Source of the DNA: Nanobdellota archaeon
GTDB lineage: Archaea > Nanobdellota > Nanobdellia > Pacearchaeales > GW2011-AR1
Direction: 5' to 3'
NCBI GenBank assembly: GCA_038045945.1
Contig: JBBSXC010000003.1
Location: forward strand, 32,001 to 96,000
Length of the DNA: 64,000 nucleotides
Shown here: positions 1-10,588 of the stretch, piece by piece
How positions within the stretch are numbered: the stretch's first letter is position 1
How the letters are laid out: each line of letters starts with the position of its first letter
Position numbers and translations under genes: made by a program
The notes under the pieces: generated by a model
The model's input: only the letters and a program-made list of their open reading frames with translations
The model's database searches: none
What the model was told of the DNA's origin: nothing

Positions 1-220
1 TGTCTCTGTCATCTATAGCATGGATCCTCTTTGGGTCGTACTTGCTATCTCTAACATCTTCATCAAATTCTGCCTTAAAATCATCCCAAGATTCTAAGCC
101 ATCAAAAGAAGTCTTAACGATTATTGCTCTAGTCTCTGGAATAGTAATTAATTCGCCATACCTAGAAGAGAAATCACTAAAAGAATCCTCATAAATAACA
201 ATTTTAGGAGAAGAAGTCAT
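1..220 (-). CDS. Receiver-like protein, paralog of 217-630 (runs off the window start)
   Basis: Read manually from ATG at 220: MTSSPKIVIYEDSFSDFSSRYGELITIP..., first 12 aa identical to ORF 217-630; ATGA overlap with that gene's stop. Confidence 0.7.
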   Translation of the reverse strand, partial: MTSSPKIVIYEDSFSDFSSRYGELITIPETRAIIVKTSFDGLESWDDFKAEFDEDVRDSKYDPKRIHAIDDRD

Positions 221-630
221 ATTTTTTCTCCCCTAAGTAATTTTTCTAGAAATCCTTGTGTTATCTCGATTCCTGAGTATGCTCTAACATTCTTTTTTTC
301 AGCTAAGTATCGTATATCGTTATCTCCGGTGTTAAGAACTAATTTTTTATTATCGATCCTATCCATTAATGTTAATGCTTTTCCAACAAGTCCATCAGAA
401 AAATAAATATCCGCTTGTTGGATATCATGAGAGTTTACTTCCTCGCGGCTAAGGGGATTAAAAGTTGTTAGTGGATAATTTGCTTCAACAAATCTTCTAA
501 CCTTTGCAGGATCATCTAAGAATTCAACAAAGAAAACATTTACAGGCATAACTTTAAGAATTTCACCATAACGATCTCTCAATGAAGGCCATTCGTCTTC
601 ATAAATAACAATTTTTGGAGAAGAAGTCAT
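217..630 (-). CDS. Divergent CheY-like response-regulator receiver-domain protein
   Basis: KIVIYEDE (acidic pocket), ADIYFSDG (phospho-Asp position), LVLNTGD (conserved Thr); conserved Lys not evident. Confidence 0.55.
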   Translation of the reverse strand: MTSSPKIVIYEDEWPSLRDRYGEILKVMPVNVFFVEFLDDPAKVRRFVEANYPLTTFNPLSREEVNSHDIQQADIYFSDGLVGKALTLMDRIDNKKLVLNTGDNDIRYLAEKKNVRAYSGIEITQGFLEKLLRGEKI

Positions 631-632
631 AA

Positions 633-1133
633 CTAATCTTTCCTCCTTTCGTAAGAAGACTCAATACCTAATTTGTGTCTGACCTGAGAAACAACACGCC
701 TACCAACATCATAGCCAAGTGAAGCAAGATAAGAAGCAATATCCCTATCACTAAAAGGAGCATTACTATCCTCGCTATCAATGTAAGATTTAACTTCATC
801 AAAGACGTATTGGGGAATCTTGTTTCTTTCTCTCTCACTACTAGCTAATATTTCAGCATTCTTAACAACATCCTCAATACTACAAGAAATAGGAGGAGAA
901 AGACGAAGATTTTGAAGAAAACCTGTATAGGGTTTACCACCACTACCGCCCAATAAATCAAGTTGCAACTTAGAGCGATCATAAACATTAGATCTATCAT
1001 AAACTTTAGGAAGATCAGCACCACGAGAATAATTAGACTTAGCACTAGGAGGCGGAGATGGGCTCTTATAACCGGGTCTGCCAGGAATATTCAACCTTTT
1101 CTTACGACCGCGAAACTTACCAGGCTTAGCCAT
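633..1133 (-). CDS. Protein with C-terminal sigma-54 (RpoN) DNA-binding domain and basic/Pro-rich N-terminus
   Basis: VKSYIDSEDSNAPFSDRDIASYLASLGYDVGRRVVSQVRHKLGIESSYERR matches RpoN C-terminus pattern I..E+...PLSD..I...L...G..+ARRTVAKYR..LGI.SS..R. Confidence 0.8.
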   Translation of the reverse strand: MAKPGKFRGRKKRLNIPGRPGYKSPSPPPSAKSNYSRGADLPKVYDRSNVYDRSKLQLDLLGGSGGKPYTGFLQNLRLSPPISCSIEDVVKNAEILASSERERNKIPQYVFDEVKSYIDSEDSNAPFSDRDIASYLASLGYDVGRRVVSQVRHKLGIESSYERRKD

Positions 1134-1135
1134 GA

Positions 1136-2434
1136 CTAACTATACCCCCTAGAACTTTTCTCAAAAGATTTCTTAGCCCTCTGGTATAATACTGAATTGC
1201 CAAATTCTCCATCAAGAAATCTTTCCTCACGAGGATCATGCAAAGGAGTACCCTTACTCAACTCAACAAACGCAAGTCTTTGATAAGGAGTATCACAAGA
1301 TTCACGCATCTCAGAAAGATGTTTGTGTTTCCCAGAAAGCTTGAACATAGCTGAGTGATAATGAAAATCACTCCAATAAAATTCGCCATCAGAAACATCC
1401 GATTTACTAAAAGAAGAAAGAATCTTAAAAATTTTTCTTCTACCAAATACTTTAGCAAGAGGCTGAGCATGATCAATATAGAAAGCCGCAAGCTTCATAG
1501 CAGAAGAATCAGAAAACATGTGAGAAGCACTAACAAAGAGACATTCAGCTTTCAAAGGATCACTCTTAACAAGTAATTCGGCCTGATCAGCAACAGCTCT
1601 GGCTAGAGCGGGATAATGATAAAGAGCATCACCCAGATGAGACTGGACACCGGTTAAATGAAACATGGTGTGATGGAAAGAAGAATCGCCGCCACCAATC
1701 CTCTTGAAAGCCTCAATACTTTTAATATAAGAATCATCATCAAAAGAAGCTTCAGCAATAAAAGAACTAAGAAGGTGAAGAGACCTGTTATCAGGCCAAA
1801 GAGTAAGACCCTTATCAGTCAATTCTCTAGCCTTGCCAAGATGGCCATCATGAGTAGCATCAGAAGCAATACTCTGAATAACGCAACTAAGACCTTGAGA
1901 GTAAGAAATCCTAACTTCTCTTTCACATTTAGAAGGCTCCCAATCAGCAGCAGTACACTCGATTGGAAAACGATCAACATCAAGAATCATGTGTTCAAGA
2001 GAAGCATACTTACCTAGAGGAGACTTCTTTTGACTAGTAGCAAGCTCAAAATGACCCATTTCGCCTTCAACTTCAACATCAGAACAAGCATCCTTAACGC
2101 CAGTTTGACACCTAAAACCAGCGCTGTAACCCTTGAGATACATGATACTCGCAATTAAGAAAGGAAGACCAACACAGTTCCCACCCTTGCGAGAAAGAAC
2201 ATCTTGAGGCCTGAAAGTTTCAGGAACGTATACAAAACCACTTCTTCTAAGGTCTCTCTTAATATCAAGAGCAGCGACTTTAGGATCAGAATCAACACTA
2301 ATAGAATCAGCAAGAAATTTCATTTCTCTAAGAGTCCTATCATCCGCACCACAAACCTCTAAGTAAGAAGAAACTTCAGCACTAGTCCTATCTCCTTGAA
2401 GTGCAGTTAGTGGTAAATCTAAAACATCAGTCAT
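1136..2434 (-). CDS. Transglutaminase-like (SirB1-type) domain plus TPR-like helical repeats
   Basis: DVLSRKGGNCVGLPFLIASI (Cys motif), EHMILDVDRFPIEC (His/acid), then TPR-like ARELTDKGLTLWPDN. Confidence 0.6.
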   Translation of the reverse strand: MTDVLDLPLTALQGDRTSAEVSSYLEVCGADDRTLREMKFLADSISVDSDPKVAALDIKRDLRRSGFVYVPETFRPQDVLSRKGGNCVGLPFLIASIMYLKGYSAGFRCQTGVKDACSDVEVEGEMGHFELATSQKKSPLGKYASLEHMILDVDRFPIECTAADWEPSKCEREVRISYSQGLSCVIQSIASDATHDGHLGKARELTDKGLTLWPDNRSLHLLSSFIAEASFDDDSYIKSIEAFKRIGGGDSSFHHTMFHLTGVQSHLGDALYHYPALARAVADQAELLVKSDPLKAECLFVSASHMFSDSSAMKLAAFYIDHAQPLAKVFGRRKIFKILSSFSKSDVSDGEFYWSDFHYHSAMFKLSGKHKHLSEMRESCDTPYQRLAFVELSKGTPLHDPREERFLDGEFGNSVLYQRAKKSFEKSSRGYS

Positions 2435-2486
2435 ATTTCATACTCCATTATTAACTTAGGAGTAGTGAATACGCTTGTAATATCTA

Positions 2487-3485: not shown

Positions 3486-5045
3486 TTAATCTTTCTCTCT
3501 TCTTTCTTTTATCACTCTATCAGCAGTTCCTTCTCCCTGTTCCTTGTCAAGACTTTGTTTAGCGTCATAAAGATTTTTTGCTAATTCCCATCTGTCATGA
3601 ACTCTATCGCCGGAAGTATGAAATTGTGGTCTCATCCAGTTATCAACATAGTTATATGTTATTTGAAGAACTTTACTCTCGATATCATCTGGGTCCTTTC
3701 CTTCTGCTGACATTTCAAGTAGTTTGGTTTTTACGCTTTCATAATCTGTTCTTCCTCCAGCTCTAACTACTGCTTCATAAGTTACGTCTGGGTTTAGATA
3801 AGCTGCAATTGCCGTTTTTTCATCACCTAATTTTTCAACCCACGCTCTAAAATCATAAGCTTCAGTTATTTCTCCTGCACCTAAATTCAATGCTTCAGCA
3901 TCTAAGACTTTTTTGCCTTGAAGTGCAACACGAATGATTTTTTCTTTACGCTCATAACTCAAATCTTTTTTATTTGAGTCTACTTTTTGAGCAAGACTAT
4001 CCTTCTCTTGATTCAATGAAGTTACCTCGTTACGAATAGCAGCAAATCCTAAAGCTACAGCAGTCAAAGCACCATTTATCAAGAACCATCTCTTAGCCCG
4101 TGCACGAGGCTTTGATGATTCATACCTCTTCATTGCTTTACTAAATTCTTCTTCAAGTGATTCTCCATCCTTGTATCTATCTGATGGGTCATAAGCTAAA
4201 CACTTCCTCAAAAACGGTCTTAGAGGTTTAGGAATGTTTGATAATGAATCTTCAATCATACCTTTATATTCCTGAAGACCAATATTTCTCATTGATTCAA
4301 TTGGATCTTTAGAATTTTCTAACCTTTTTTCTGTAGGGTACTTACCACTAAGCAGCTTGACTGCTAGAGAACCAACTGACCAAACATCTGACTGAGTTGT
4401 TGGGTGAGAATTATCAGCAAATACTTCTGGAGCTCTGATAGCTACATGACCAATATTGTCTCTTGGGCTCTCACTCCAATCTTCTGGACTAACTGTTGTA
4501 GCAGTACCTGTATCGGCAATAACTAATCTTGTTCGACTACTGCCAGCCGGATCATAAGACATTATGTTATCAGAATTTAAGTCTCCATGAACTCTAGAGA
4601 AATCTGTGTGTAACTCCTTTACTCCATGAACTATGTCCTCTAGCCCTAAAAGGATGGTTTCTGTTCTCTTGCTTCCTTTAAGGTAATGGTTCCAGTATTC
4701 TTCCCAATTCCTTAGAGTACTATGACATTGAGGCATCCAAATAAATGGTTTACCATCAAGGTCTTTGAATGGAACTGATGGAAGAACGTTACGTGCTGGA
4801 GCAAATCTTGATTCTCTAATTAAGACATCAGTCTCATTAATGTTTCTATGAACTCTTTGCTTTTTAGCAATTTCTGATGGAGAAAAAACCTTTATTGCCC
4901 CGTGCTGACCACTAATAACATCAAAAGCAGCATAGACTGCTCCATTACTTCCTCTCCCCAACTCTTGATAATTAACAAATCTGTCAGAACGAATAACATC
5001 CTCATGACCATCACTCCTCTTAGGGATACTACTACTAGAACTCAT
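3486..5045 (-). CDS. Membrane-anchored Hanks-type Ser/Thr protein kinase, copy 1
   Basis: LGRGSNGAVY, AIK, HGDLNSDN, ADTG, RAPE, SDVWSVG; TM WFLINGALTAVALGFAAI, coiled coil, C-terminal domain; GGAGGT SD upstream. Confidence 0.9.
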   Translation of the reverse strand: MSSSSSIPKRSDGHEDVIRSDRFVNYQELGRGSNGAVYAAFDVISGQHGAIKVFSPSEIAKKQRVHRNINETDVLIRESRFAPARNVLPSVPFKDLDGKPFIWMPQCHSTLRNWEEYWNHYLKGSKRTETILLGLEDIVHGVKELHTDFSRVHGDLNSDNIMSYDPAGSSRTRLVIADTGTATTVSPEDWSESPRDNIGHVAIRAPEVFADNSHPTTQSDVWSVGSLAVKLLSGKYPTEKRLENSKDPIESMRNIGLQEYKGMIEDSLSNIPKPLRPFLRKCLAYDPSDRYKDGESLEEEFSKAMKRYESSKPRARAKRWFLINGALTAVALGFAAIRNEVTSLNQEKDSLAQKVDSNKKDLSYERKEKIIRVALQGKKVLDAEALNLGAGEITEAYDFRAWVEKLGDEKTAIAAYLNPDVTYEAVVRAGGRTDYESVKTKLLEMSAEGKDPDDIESKVLQITYNYVDNWMRPQFHTSGDRVHDRWELAKNLYDAKQSLDKEQGEGTADRVIKERREKD

Positions 5046-5317: not shown

Positions 5318-5554
5318 ATGAAGACTATTACTATAAAGCTTCCTGAGAGAGAAGCTGAAGAGCTTGAATTATTTGTTAAGTCTAGCGGTTATCCTTCGAA
5401 ATCGGAATTTATTAGACACTTAATAGTTGGTAAGATGGGTTTAGAAAGAAAAGAAAAGCTCGGATGGATGATGCTTGGCCAAAAAGCTTTAGCTAAAAGA
5501 TGGAATAATCCTAAAGATGATAAGGTATGGAGCAGTTATATAAAAAATGATTAA
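5318..5554 (+). CDS. Ribbon-helix-helix (CopG-like) antitoxin
   Basis: MKTITIKLP...GYPSKSEFIRHLI; overlaps downstream toxin. Confidence 0.8.
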   Translation: MKTITIKLPEREAEELELFVKSSGYPSKSEFIRHLIVGKMGLERKEKLGWMMLGQKALAKRWNNPKDDKVWSSYIKND

Positions 5555-5888
5555 TCAAGGAGACTTATTATTGGCGCCTTTTCCCTTTTCAGATCAGTCT
5601 GGAAGAAAAGTAAGGCCTGTAATTGTTATTAGTAATGACAAATATAACTCTCATCATGATGATATAGTTGCAGTTGGTGTAACGTCTAACGTTTTCAAAA
5701 ATCCATACTACATTGATTTCACCAATGCTGACTTAGACTTTGGTAATCTAGTAACTGTTTGCTCAATAATGGCTGATAGTCTAACACTGCTTGATAAAGA
5801 ATTGATTACTAAAAGAATCGGTAAAGTTAACAAGAACAAAATGAAAACAGTTTTTGATAAAGTTGTTGAAATAATAAAAACTAAATAA
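5547..5888 (+). CDS. mazF: PemK/MazF-family toxin
   Basis: QGDLLLAPFPFSDQSGRKVRPVIVISND...VGVTS. Confidence 0.9.
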   Translation: MINQGDLLLAPFPFSDQSGRKVRPVIVISNDKYNSHHDDIVAVGVTSNVFKNPYYIDFTNADLDFGNLVTVCSIMADSLTLLDKELITKRIGKVNKNKMKTVFDKVVEIIKTK

Positions 5889-8998: not shown

Positions 8999-10588
8999 TT
9001 ATATGTCTTGATGGTAGTAAGCAAGCCAAGCATCAACAAACTTTCTCCCATCTTTATCTAAAAACTTTCTGTAAGACTTGTAATCATTACTATTAGATTT
9101 AGACTTTACTTCTCTTAATTTACCAATTCCGGATCTTGAGACTACCATCGTATCTTCAACGTCTACATTACCCTTACTATCTCGGCATTCTTCAATTGCC
9201 ACTTCTAGTGATGCAGCAATTGTTGGGAAAAAGGGGCCAAATGCTGGATCATTCTTATCAAAATCTTTATTGTTCAACTTGGCAAATAATCTTGATTGAT
9301 ACTCTGTTAATCTTTCGCCTCTAACATCTGAATTTGCTTGTGCGAAACTCTTAGCAAAATAAGCAACAATTTTATCCTTTGATGCTAACTTAGCGTACCT
9401 GTCAAAACCTTGTTGAATCATGCCATCAGCAGTTTCATAGTCTAAATATTCCTGGCTACTTTCTGAAACGAAAGATGTTTGTTTGCCTTCAAAAATCTCA
9501 TCTTTTGGTTGATAAAGCATTCCCCTAACTTCTTGATCTGATAATTGTCTTCTTTCTGGAATTAATGAAGAAGCATAAATGCCAAAACCTATTAGTCCGC
9601 CAAGCCCTAATGCTCCTAAACCAAACCTTCTAGTATACTTTTTGAATTCATTCATTACGTGAGACTTATCAAGTGTTCTTTCTAAGTTTTCTTTAAGGTC
9701 TGTACCGTTGCTAAACCTTTTATTTTCATCAATATTAAGTCCTTTTGAAAAGAACTTTCTTATCCTTCTGTCACTAATTTTCTCTTTAATTCTTCTATCT
9801 ATGAATTCTTGTATAGCCTCTTTACTTGAACTCTTTATCTCATCATAACTTAAACCCTCTAGGGGGTATTCCCCAGTTTTTAACTTAAACATTAATGCTG
9901 TAGCACTATAGGTGTCTGTTCTCTTTGTAGGGTGACTCCCTTCATTAAAAAGTTCTGGGGCTCTAGTTAAAAACCATCCGATATTATCTCTTGGGGACTG
10001 AGTCATTCCCATACCTTCAACCGTTGATGCACCAAAATCATTAAGTAACAATCGTCCCTCTAAATTAATGGCAAAATTTCCCGGATGACCATCACCATGG
10101 ACTCTGTTTAGTCCTGCCTTTGAGTGAACTTCGCTATATGCCGTTGCAATATCCCTCACATAATGATCAAAATGGGGTTCTACCTTCTCCTCCCATGATG
10201 AAGGATTATAAGGATTATCTTTTGCTATAACCTCTAACATTTTATCTAAAAACATGTCGTAAGGGGGCATTACAATGAATCTTCTACCATTCTTATCGAC
10301 TTCAAATCTTGTTGGAACAACTCTTGAACAAGCAGAAAGCTGAACAGCCTCATTATCCATTGCTTTATTCTCATCAAGATTTCTCTTAGGCATCTTACCT
10401 AAAGCTTCATCCGTTGGAGCAAAAACTTTTATTGCAACATCCTGGCCCGTTATTCTGTCTTTACCCTTATAAACAATACCCCAAGAGCCCATACCGTAAA
10501 TCTCTGCAGGATCAAAAGAATACCTATAAGAATCAATGATCCCAGGGTTCCCCCTTCTAGAGACAAAAGAATTATCCGTTTCAGTCAT
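8999..10588 (-). CDS. Membrane-anchored Hanks-type Ser/Thr protein kinase, copy 2
   Basis: GMGSWGIVY, VAIK, HGDGHPGN, NDFG, RAPE; TM FGLGALGLGGLIGFGIYA; GGAGGT SD upstream. Confidence 0.9.
   Translation of the reverse strand: MTETDNSFVSRRGNPGIIDSYRYSFDPAEIYGMGSWGIVYKGKDRITGQDVAIKVFAPTDEALGKMPKRNLDENKAMDNEAVQLSACSRVVPTRFEVDKNGRRFIVMPPYDMFLDKMLEVIAKDNPYNPSSWEEKVEPHFDHYVRDIATAYSEVHSKAGLNRVHGDGHPGNFAINLEGRLLLNDFGASTVEGMGMTQSPRDNIGWFLTRAPELFNEGSHPTKRTDTYSATALMFKLKTGEYPLEGLSYDEIKSSSKEAIQEFIDRRIKEKISDRRIRKFFSKGLNIDENKRFSNGTDLKENLERTLDKSHVMNEFKKYTRRFGLGALGLGGLIGFGIYASSLIPERRQLSDQEVRGMLYQPKDEIFEGKQTSFVSESSQEYLDYETADGMIQQGFDRYAKLASKDKIVAYFAKSFAQANSDVRGERLTEYQSRLFAKLNNKDFDKNDPAFGPFFPTIAASLEVAIEECRDSKGNVDVEDTMVVSRSGIGKLREVKSKSNSNDYKSYRKFLDKDGRKFVDAWLAYYHQDI

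Follow-up and report, generated by a model that had tools for sequence, protein, structure and literature searches.

A stand-alone sigma-54 RpoN domain encoded beside a conserved upstream gene in a Nanobdellota archaeon

The DNA analysed here (the window) is a stretch of 64,000 nucleotides (nt), positions 32001-96000 of contig C3 in the assembly of a groundwater archaeon of the Nanobdellota (G000), and carries near its left end, on the minus strand, a short gene, g2, whose product contains a domain of the bacterial sigma factor sigma-54 outside of any sigma factor. The assembly amounts to 847,022 bases in 7 contigs and is 93% complete and 1% contaminated. It encodes a TFIIB/TFB protein, the control for which was positive in archaeal reference genomes only, and the host genome is archaeal, of the DPANN type. 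g2 is an open reading frame (ORF) of 166 amino acids (aa) that starts with ATG and occupies positions 633..1133, stop codon included. Directly upstream of it on the same strand lies g1 (1136..2434; 432 aa), the stop codon of which is separated from the ATG of g2 by 2 nt. The product of g1 consists, as judged from alignments and a structural model, of an N-terminal alpha/beta domain followed by TPR-like repeats.

A preliminary description of g2 had placed an RpoN domain in the last ca. 60 residues of the protein, and this was borne out by several comparisons. In HMMER searches, g2 matched Sigma54_DBD (Pfam PF04552) with an E-value of 1.8e-10 and 41.2 bits, well above the gathering cut-off of 22.8. 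The match pairs g2 residues 104-165 with profile positions 99-160 of 160, and is thus confined to the C-terminal RpoN domain (62 of 160 positions covered). Similarly, g2 covers just the last ca. 55 positions of the NCBIfam rpoN models (37.2 bits, versus a whole-protein cut-off of 277). The solved RpoN domains of Aquifex aeolicus were matched by sequence (5ui5, E 4.7e-10; 2o8k, 2.2e-8; 2ahq, 3.2e-8). In an AlphaFold2 model, which was based on an alignment of 26 family sequences, residues 1-80 are disordered, helices are predicted at residues 86-103, 108-119, 129-138, and 145-155, with a short C-terminal helix after them, and the block-mean predicted local distance difference test score (pLDDT) is 96-98 over residues 111-160. 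When the model was compared with the PDB using Foldseek, all of the top 25 matches were sigma-54 RpoN domains, among them 2o8k (root-mean-square deviation (rmsd) 1.7 A over 51 columns) and sigma-N in a holoenzyme (9msf_M; 0.8 A over 54 columns, 35% identity). E-values in the Foldseek comparison were modest (from 1.5e-3), the RpoN domain being short. We conclude that the C-terminal ca. 60 residues of the g2 product are a genuine sigma-54 RpoN domain. Compared with the bacterial domain (2O8K, 2AHQ, 5UI5), the three-helix fold is the same (rmsd 0.8-1.7 A over 51-54 columns, 35-45% identity), the recognition helix is placed in the same way, and the box arginines R2, R3, and R9 are common to both; in contrast to the bacterial domain, that of g2 stands outside a sigma factor, has Val in place of T4, Gln in place of K7, and Val in place of Y8, bears a net charge of -2 versus about +5, and comes with an extra N-terminal helix, a disordered tail, a dedicated partner gene, and an archaeal host.

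The remainder of the protein is arranged as follows. Residues 1-43 (1005..1133) form a disordered basic tail rich in Lys, Arg, and Pro (7 K, 5 R, and 8 P, against a single acidic residue; net charge +11), which has the segment RLNIPGR in common with P0002, a 51%-identical ortholog. Residues 44-54 (972..1004) read VYDRS-N-VYDRS, with copies of VYDRS starting at residues 44 and 50, and are partly kept in P0002. Both the basic, disordered character of the N-terminus and the VYDRS repeat had been correctly read from the DNA in the preliminary description. Residues 55-85 (879..971) carry a motif typical of the family described below, which in g2 has the form KLQL..GGSGGKPY..LQNLRLSPPIS, and residues 86-103 (825..878) correspond to the extra predicted helix, which has a pLDDT of about 85-87 and is conserved in the family (..EEVV.NA..). 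The RpoN domain itself, with its three helices and short C-terminal helix, spans residues 104-166 (636..824). Region I (Sigma54_AID, PF00309), the core-binding domain (PF04963), and the ELH-HTH each gave no Pfam match in g2 at E <= 1; the ELH-HTH, which reads the -12 element, corresponds to PF04552 profile positions ca. 1-98, and these are not covered by g2.

The RpoN box, which lies on the recognition helix (residues 144-152; 678..704), reads GRRVVSQVR and stands opposite ARRTVAKYR of Aquifex in the alignment, the same replacement that the preliminary description had pointed out. The box was compared between 16 full sigma-54 proteins and 26 members of the g2 family. Arg at position 2 is found in 16 of 16 sigma-54 proteins and 20 of 26 family members, and Arg at position 3 in 16 of 16 and 13 of 26, respectively; g2 has Arg at both positions. 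Position 4 is Thr in 14 of 16 sigma-54 proteins, Asp or Glu in 24 of 26 family members, and Val in g2. The Lys at position 7, present in 16 of 16 sigma-54 proteins, occurs in 3 of 26 family members and is Gln in g2, while the Tyr at position 8 (16 of 16) occurs in just 1 of 26 (Ala in 18, Val in 6) and is Val in g2. The final Arg, at position 9, is present in every sequence of both sets (16 of 16 and 26 of 26), including g2. At positions 2-4, g2 is the most sigma-54-like member of the family; the canonical box with its invariant R-R...K-Y-R is not present in g2, which keeps R2, R3, and R9 and has K7 and Y8 changed to Gln and Val. The net charge of the RpoN domain averages +5.0 in sigma-54, versus -2 in g2.

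What is known of the bacterial domain bears on what these changes may mean. According to passages of one report, R455 and R456 are proposed to make base-specific hydrogen bonds, and single changes of R456 retarget promoter choice (PMC12096077). The box Tyr is reported to be crucial for DNA binding, which is attenuated by the change Y48A, and the isolated 60-aa Aquifex RpoN domain is reported to bind the -24 element with a dissociation constant of ca. 109 nM (both from passages of PMC5626770, citing Doucleff et al.); passages of the same paper describe repression of sigma-54 promoters in Pseudomonas aeruginosa by the Aquifex domain alone. Since the isolated Aquifex domain binds DNA, the RpoN fold is able to bind DNA alone. 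That g2 keeps both base-contact arginines and the invariant last Arg of the box speaks for DNA binding, while its changed box residues argue against canonical -24 specificity.

A word-indexed homolog search with g2 returned g2 itself only. An exhaustive HMMER search over 1.84 billion representatives returned 79 proteins at E <= 1e-3, which fall into four groups. One is represented by the full-length ortholog P0002 (176 aa, 51% identity to g2), which keeps parts of the disordered tail (RLNIPGR, DLP.VY, KLQL, GGSGG.PY, LRLSPPI). Another consists of proteins of 98-142 aa that align to g2 residues ca. 56-165. The other two are ordinary full-length sigma-54 proteins and proteins with 2-7 tandem RpoN-like domains. 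An alignment (A1) was made from g2 and 25 hand-picked short relatives taken from the 79 matches (lengths 98-176 aa), some two dozen of them from the 98-142-aa group. All 26 members of A1 match Sigma54_DBD. A profile-profile comparison with 16 full sigma-54 proteins matched no more of A1 than its C-terminal 62 columns (98.8% probability, E 4.3e-17). In g2 numbering, P80 and P81 are nearly invariant in A1, and E121, P126, R152, and R163 are invariant. The two prolines belong to a motif upstream of the RpoN domain with the consensus ..Q...L.PPIA.T.E.V..NA.. We define the family by this N-motif, with its nearly invariant PP, together with an RpoN-like C-terminal domain in a protein of 80-176 aa; g2 has both elements, and matches the family profile with an E-value of 2.9e-32 (g2 itself being inside the profile).

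The short relatives that are not in the sampled genomes come from metagenome contigs of 845-8376 bp, from four public sources. No relative was found in phage records, viral contigs, or metagenome contigs searched with alignment A4, and a second metagenome scan returned just one normal bacterial rpoN. A degenerate-motif scan of species genomes gave at least 120 loci, and the family hidden Markov model (HMM) matched 112 of the 120 listed. Among 80 of the listed loci, viewed with up to 6 kb of flanking DNA, nearly all were ordinary full-length rpoN ORFs of ca. 470-620 aa, and a few others were shorter than this, ran into a contig end, or belonged to proteins of ca. 960-984 aa; the short family was not located among the matches listed, 40 of the loci having too little flank. 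In a protein atlas, clusters of 80-110 aa named 'Sigma-54 DNA binding domain-containing' are labelled bacterial, with scores below 0.9; these are leads, some of which may be gene fragments. The titles, abstract openings, and selected passages retrieved in a literature search mention neither a natural stand-alone archaeal RpoN-domain protein nor the pairing of g1 with g2. What is new is the architecture, the partner, and the archaeal host, the RpoN domain itself being known already; the family is apparently undescribed.

Other placements of the RpoN domain were seen along the way. The tandem proteins (P0003, P0006, P0007, P0008, P0011, P0017, P0021, P0025, P0032, P0035, P0040, P0046, and P0050) are 145-671 aa long and have 2-7 copies of the domain, several with a hydrophobic, signal-peptide-like segment at the N-terminus; they are clearly no sigma factors. 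The frames of ca. 960-984 aa, from Brevibacillus and Clostridium records (L050, L061, L065, and L038), have the RpoN-domain motif within their first ca. 40 residues (family HMM E 1e-7 to 4e-10), which is another non-sigma placement of the domain.

The start of Region I of sigma-54 (ca. 20 residues) is the peptide gripped by AAA+ activators, and a peptide resembling it appears to precede the RpoN domain in the g2 family. A scan seeded with family member P0034 led to a normal 503-aa bacterial sigma-54; its Region I (ALRLEQRLVMTPQLQQAIKLL) and the N-motif of P0034 (FARLEQRLVMTPPVAGSE) have the 10-mer RLEQRLVMTP in common. When the family N-block was aligned with Region I of 16 sigma-54 proteins using hhalign, 10 columns were matched with a score of 11.8, a value that none of 150 column shuffles reached (mean 6.6, standard deviation 1.4); whole-alignment hhalign recovered the C-terminal domain only. 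A Region I HMM was built from 66 sigma-54 proteins (50 selected full-length ORFs from the motif-scan loci and the 16 of alignment A2). With this HMM, 12 of 26 family N-termini scored above the 99th percentile, and 14 above the 95th, of 1040 composition-matched shuffles, and the significant alignments were in one register, with the (T/S)P of the family, which closes the Region I-like peptide of the relatives and precedes the nearly invariant PP, on HMM positions 19-20. Scores of at least 5 bits were obtained for 11 of 26 family members, compared with 3 of 1639 N-termini of other host ORFs (at least 80 aa), and three family members lie above the host-ORF background maximum of 8.4 bits. From these comparisons, a Region I origin of the family N-motif is likely, by a fair but not a wide measure, and the family is likely to stem from a bacterial rpoN of which the N-terminal peptide of Region I and the RpoN domain were kept, the intervening remainder of Region I, Region II, the core-binding domain, and the ELH-HTH having all been lost. 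For the g2 copy alone such an origin is undemonstrable, this copy being too diverged to score. The statement in the preliminary description that Region I and the core-binding domain are absent thus stands for g2 as far as Pfam matches to either are concerned, but needs to be qualified for Region I, as relatives keep a Region I-like N-terminal peptide.

To follow g2 and g1 among archaea, two samples of genomes were searched. In a sample of the phylum (401 genomes, each at least 90% complete), the family was found in G000 alone, and so was g1 (1 of 401 genomes). In a sample of the order (401 genomes, completeness at least 40%), the family profile matched six genomes, G000, G518, G695, G505, G779, and G510, all of which belong to one GTDB family (5 of 355 others). 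A g1 homolog lies directly upstream of the short gene and on the same strand in G518, G779, and G505 (29-32% identity, E 1e-44 to 1e-57). A g1 profile (A5) was made from G000 and these three sequences, and searched in apparently the same 401 genomes of the order; it matched six of them, G000, G505, G518, G779, G695, and G569. In G695, the short gene (C59:183-470) comes right after the end of a g1 gene (C59:2-139). In G569, a gap of 175 nt separates g1 from a downstream 80-aa ORF, which reads ..QTLAPPISNSLSELRAN.. near its start and ends just past a degenerate recognition helix. A family-like small ORF is thus present directly downstream of g1 in six of six g1-bearing genomes (five genera). Conversely, g1 is present in five of the six genomes matched with A1, the exception being G510, in which the matching protein is of a longer type.

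The longer type is represented by proteins of 311 aa in G510 (L141:9581-10516, plus strand) and 321 aa in G035 (L004:1441-2406, minus strand), which, like g2, are archaeal, sigma-54-derived, from the same GTDB family, and lack a core-binding domain. Unlike g2, they keep nearly the whole of Sigma54_DBD, including the helix-turn-helix (HTH), at positions 6-158 (E 3.1e-16) and 22-157, respectively, and in the G510 copy the box (ARRTVSKYR) is near-canonical. The two are 29% identical to each other and were not beside g1 in the loci seen; neither scored significantly with the Region I HMM. Between g2 and the G035 protein there is no significant BLASTP similarity (E 0.61).

Flanking genes of the g1-g2 pair have nothing in common between genomes. 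The pair is flanked by PGK and GAPDH genes in G518, by GNAT and UvrD/PD-(D/E)XK helicase genes in G505, and by genes for a tyrosine recombinase, a cyclodipeptide synthase, and an archaeal Rpb3-type RNA polymerase subunit in G779. The ratio of nonsynonymous to synonymous substitution rates (dN/dS), calculated for G505 versus G779, which are of the same genus, was 0.28 for g2 and 0.13 for g1, with dS saturated at 1.7-2.2. We conclude that g2 is a real gene under purifying selection, and that the conserved unit is the g1-g2 cassette rather than a wider operon.

The g1 homologs are 336-432 aa long. In a four-sequence alignment, C87 (in GNC.G.P), H148 (in LEH), D115, E159, and E171 are invariant. 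In the AlphaFold2 model of g1 (pLDDT 75.3), C87 is placed just before helix 89-100, H148 opens a strand of a small sheet, and the alpha/beta part is followed by helical repeats at residues 178-431. Foldseek searches with this model gave TPR proteins at the top and also menin, over ca. 418 columns (3u88, TMq 0.34). VIA-align, which is independent of Foldseek, ranked menin 3re2_A first (Z 14.3, rmsd 5.3 A, 296 residues over model residues 8-349); menin shares the top Z with one TPR protein, and among the top-ranked rows only menin extends across the N-terminal domain as well as the repeats. At the sequence level, a g1 profile searched against the PDB gave weak TPR similarity only, a word-indexed search with g1 returned g1 itself only, and PADLOC and PHROGs have no family for either g1 or g2. 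Passages of two papers describe menin as a transglutaminase-like/papain-like family protein in which Ser replaces the catalytic Cys (PMC3495828, PMC10318531) and as a scaffolding protein whose pocket, according to a reference title, binds MLL and JUND (PMC10318531, PMC3495828); passages of the second also describe it as solely eukaryotic (PMC10318531). Based on the model, g1 may be described as a menin-like Cys/His alpha/beta-plus-TPR protein, the predicted fold match being borderline. The identity of the two proteins is 9%; they have in common an alpha/beta domain followed by helical repeats, and they differ in that g1 keeps Cys where menin has Ser. A transglutaminase-like or papain-like enzymatic activity of g1 is conceivable on the strength of this model.

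A complex of full-length g1 with g2 residues 50-166 was predicted using custom alignments, with which the calibration counts of the tool hold only roughly. The score was 0.58 (0.57, 0.61, and 0.58 in separate runs), the best of three controls reaching 0.02; contacts agreed between runs by at least 50%, and the partner pLDDT was at least 69. In the calibration of the tool, 116 of 157 solved complexes attained the mark set for the score, as did 2 of 215 mismatched pairs; only 18 of the 157, but both of the mismatched pairs that passed, did so at 0.60 or under. Taking the weak support from the predicted complex together with conserved adjacency as a prior, g1 probably binds g2.

The sigma-54 machinery is missing from the host. 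The g2 ORF is the sole Sigma54_DBD match in the genome. No Sigma54_CBD was found in the 93%-complete host genome or in the five other genomes with Sigma54_DBD family matches. The best host match to Sigma54_activat, in an 870-aa frame, was 17.9 bits (best stretch), while the control was positive in 14 of 14 reference genomes, archaea included. The promoter consensus TGGCAC-N5-TTGC, with two or fewer mismatches, occurs 27 times in the window, compared with 25.4 +/- 5.1 expected, i.e., it is not enriched. With no sigma-54, no convincing activator, and no promoter excess in the host, there is nothing for g2 to join or to compete with. Judged from its sequence, which lacks the core-binding domain, the ELH-HTH, and a full Region I, and from an archaeal host that has TFB and no Sigma54_CBD, g2 is unable to act as a sigma factor, as the preliminary description had proposed.

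We consider the following reading, which develops the second suggestion of the preliminary description, a re-targeted repressor, itself a plausible one. The g2 product would be a small DNA-binding regulator, the specificity of which has shifted away from the -24 element of sigma-54, and would act without contacting RNA polymerase, as a repressor or an operator-binding protein. Its N-terminal tail, with a charge of +11, probably adds DNA affinity in this lineage. The conserved disordered N-motif (..LSPPI..) may be a handle for the binding of g1, and g1 may cleave or modify this motif, thereby setting the activity or stability of g2. Taken as a whole, i.e., a small retargeted DNA-binding regulator in a tight cassette with, and controlled by, g1, this reading has in our view about an even chance of being correct. 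A more ambitious version would have the family consist of both ends of sigma-54 and nothing else (the activator-gripped peptide and the -24 reader), rewired in DPANN archaea to a menin-like partner with an intact Cys/His pair that binds or processes the peptide, as a switch independent of RNA polymerase in a domain of life regarded as having no sigma factors; this we consider an unlikely extension.

Several results weigh against the reading of g2 as a retargeted regulator controlled by g1. With regard to DNA binding, the box Tyr reported as crucial is Val in g2 and the sigma-54-invariant Lys is Gln, the net charge of the g2 RpoN domain is -2 versus the sigma-54 mean of +5.0, box position 4 is acidic (Asp or Glu) in 24 of 26 family members, and the relatives in G505, G779, and G569 end right after the recognition helix. 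Given the acidic position 4 and the shortened relatives, much of the family may bind DNA weakly or no longer at all. As to the N-motif, the hhalign match to Region I has a probability of 1.6% and is 10 columns long, Pfam Sigma54_AID is matched by none of the 26 family members at E <= 10, and the Region I similarity ends at TP; in g2 the motif is broken by GGSGGKPYTGF and scores -2.9 bits with the Region I HMM, and P0002 scores -1.8. In the case of g1, a Z of ca. 14 for the menin match is borderline for a helical protein, no Pfam family, Menin included, is matched at E <= 1, and the score of the g1-g2 complex lies in a band in which predictions are more often wrong than right unless the interaction was likely beforehand. 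Finally, the G518 protein is identical to P0020 in the A1 query, so that the match of the family profile in G518 is partly by construction, the other matches of that profile being independent, and construction likewise accounts in part for the A5 matches in G518, G505, and G779, the sequences of which are inside the g1 query.

Much of the same evidence can be read in other ways. Many type II antitoxins combine a disordered partner-binding segment with a small DNA-binding domain. The cassette could accordingly be a mobile module of the toxin-antitoxin or defence type, in which g1 is the effector (a papain/transglutaminase-like protease with a TPR sensor) and g2 an antitoxin-like neutraliser, its disordered N-motif blocking g1 and its HTH domain autorepressing the cassette. 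Strict pairing and a patchy spread (six of 401 genomes of the order, all of one family, and one of 401 in the phylum sample), flanks that differ in every genome, a tyrosine recombinase gene adjoining the cassette in G779, Cys87 and His148 being invariant in g1, and the build of g2 itself are all as such a module would have them. But PADLOC and PHROGs hold no family for either protein, g1 is large (336-432 aa) and of no known toxin family, and the G000 pair forms the start of a 12-gene operon; we see this account as possible and on balance improbable. A different role for g2, that of an adaptor or a substrate of g1 with an RpoN-like domain that does not bind DNA and an N-terminus that is cross-linked, deamidated, or trimmed, would explain why the best conserved element of the family is the PP-containing N-motif and not the recognition helix. 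It would also suit the loss of box K7 and Y8 (Lys in 3 and Tyr in 1 of 26), the acidic position 4 in 24 of 26 members, the low net charge of the RpoN domain, the Cys/His pair kept by g1, and the disordered, Gln/Lys/Gly-rich N-terminus of g2. Set against this role are the retention of Arg9 in 26 of 26 and Arg2 in 20 of 26 members, the two base-contacting arginines that g2 keeps and the +11 tail that it adds, and the three-helix fold predicted with very high confidence; we find it distinctly unlikely.

Two further possibilities fare much worse. The preliminary description had suggested that g2 might compete for the -24 promoter element of sigma-54, and a precedent for such a 'roadblock' exists in passages of PMC5626770, where an engineered stand-alone Aquifex RpoN domain represses sigma-54 promoters in Pseudomonas aeruginosa; g2, moreover, keeps both box arginines. 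But in an archaeal genome with no Sigma54_CBD, a best activator-AAA+ match of 17.9 bits, and an unenriched promoter consensus, and with the box Tyr and Lys replaced, this proposal becomes very hard to sustain, and we abandon it as highly improbable. That g2 is a pseudogene fragment, left over from an rpoN that was acquired horizontally and is now decaying, could be argued from sigma-54 models matching only the C-terminal ca. 60 residues. The upstream gene (1136-2434), however, has no Pfam family (E <= 1) and no trace of sigma-54, so that g2 does not represent the end of a disrupted rpoN. Its reading frame is uninterrupted, the ATG lying 2 nt past the upstream stop; the short form occurs with the same partner in six genomes of five genera; dN/dS is 0.28; and the 51%-identical full-length ortholog keeps even the disordered tail. 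We regard the pseudogene explanation, the least probable of all, as effectively refuted by the intact ORF, the recurrence with the partner, and the purifying selection.

Compared with known systems, g2 as a retargeted regulator would come closest in principle to the synthetic RpoN* roadblock, a 60-aa Aquifex domain described in passages of PMC5626770 as a stand-alone DNA-bound repressor without polymerase contact, and would be a natural counterpart to it. The two differ in that RpoN* has a canonical box and is aimed at bacterial sigma-54 promoters, while g2 has an altered box and a host without sigma-54 (comparison with the same passages of PMC5626770). In size, in the combination of disorder with a DNA-binding domain, in the adjacent enzyme-type gene, and in its patchy spread, g2 also resembles type II antitoxins and small HTH regulators; unlike in type II systems, the partner g1 is no known toxin, is unusually large and encoded first, and has no PADLOC match. 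Sigma-54 is regarded as purely bacterial, its parts working only jointly on bacterial RNA polymerase. If true, the reading would mean a clear cross-domain recycling of the sigma-54 reader, and in relatives apparently of the activator handle too, with a new dedicated partner. The g1-g2 pair (432 and 166 aa) would then be a compact system for RpoN-fold retargeting and for the re-use of a disordered handle. A prokaryotic relative of menin that keeps Cys where menin has Ser would be of interest in itself.

The g1-g2 pair of G000 stands at the head of an array of 12 genes on the minus strand, most of which share a 4-nt overlap with the next gene (L007:10249-16434, which equals C3:28249-34434; positions 1-2434 are in the window). 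The gene after g2, g3 (217..630, minus strand; 137 aa), has no Pfam family and belongs to this array, which is specific to G000, but not to the conserved pair; it is a paralog of g4 (35% identity, E 9e-21). g5 is membrane-protein-like, and most genes of the array have no Pfam family. Another array gene, g11 (L007:10827-11327, minus strand; 166 aa), has an N-terminal Fis/NtrC-type HTH_8 (E 4.5e-11), the only HTH_8 in the host genome; in PADLOC, the protein is matched as well by the C-terminal HTH of an RtcR/PspF2-type model. DNA-binding modules of the sigma-54 type (g2) and of the activator type (g11) are found together here in one archaeal operon. Searches with g3 and g11 as queries found neither in the five other genomes with family matches; the idea of the HTH_8 protein and the RpoN-domain protein as a conserved 'sigma-54 DNA-binding pair' was dropped, since g11 was not found in these five genomes.

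Upstream of g1, a stretch containing ACTACT is present in the last ca. 45 nt at three of four loci (G000, G779, and G505, including L140 and L139), beside TATA-like boxes. In G000 (window positions 2435-2475), it belongs to a short inverted repeat, TACTCC..GGAGTA, and is a candidate promoter or operator.

Elsewhere in the window, at no great distance from the cassette, two genes on the minus strand, 3486-5045 and 8999-10588, encode eukaryote-type Ser/Thr kinases of 519 and 529 aa, respectively, with long non-kinase C-terminal halves. The kinase encoded at 3486-5045 also matches PADLOC models of defence-associated kinases, probably generically. A 78-aa ORF (5318-5554, plus strand) runs at its end into a PemK/MazF-like toxin gene (5547-5888, plus strand; E 1.1e-14), and the two look like an ordinary type II toxin-antitoxin pair.

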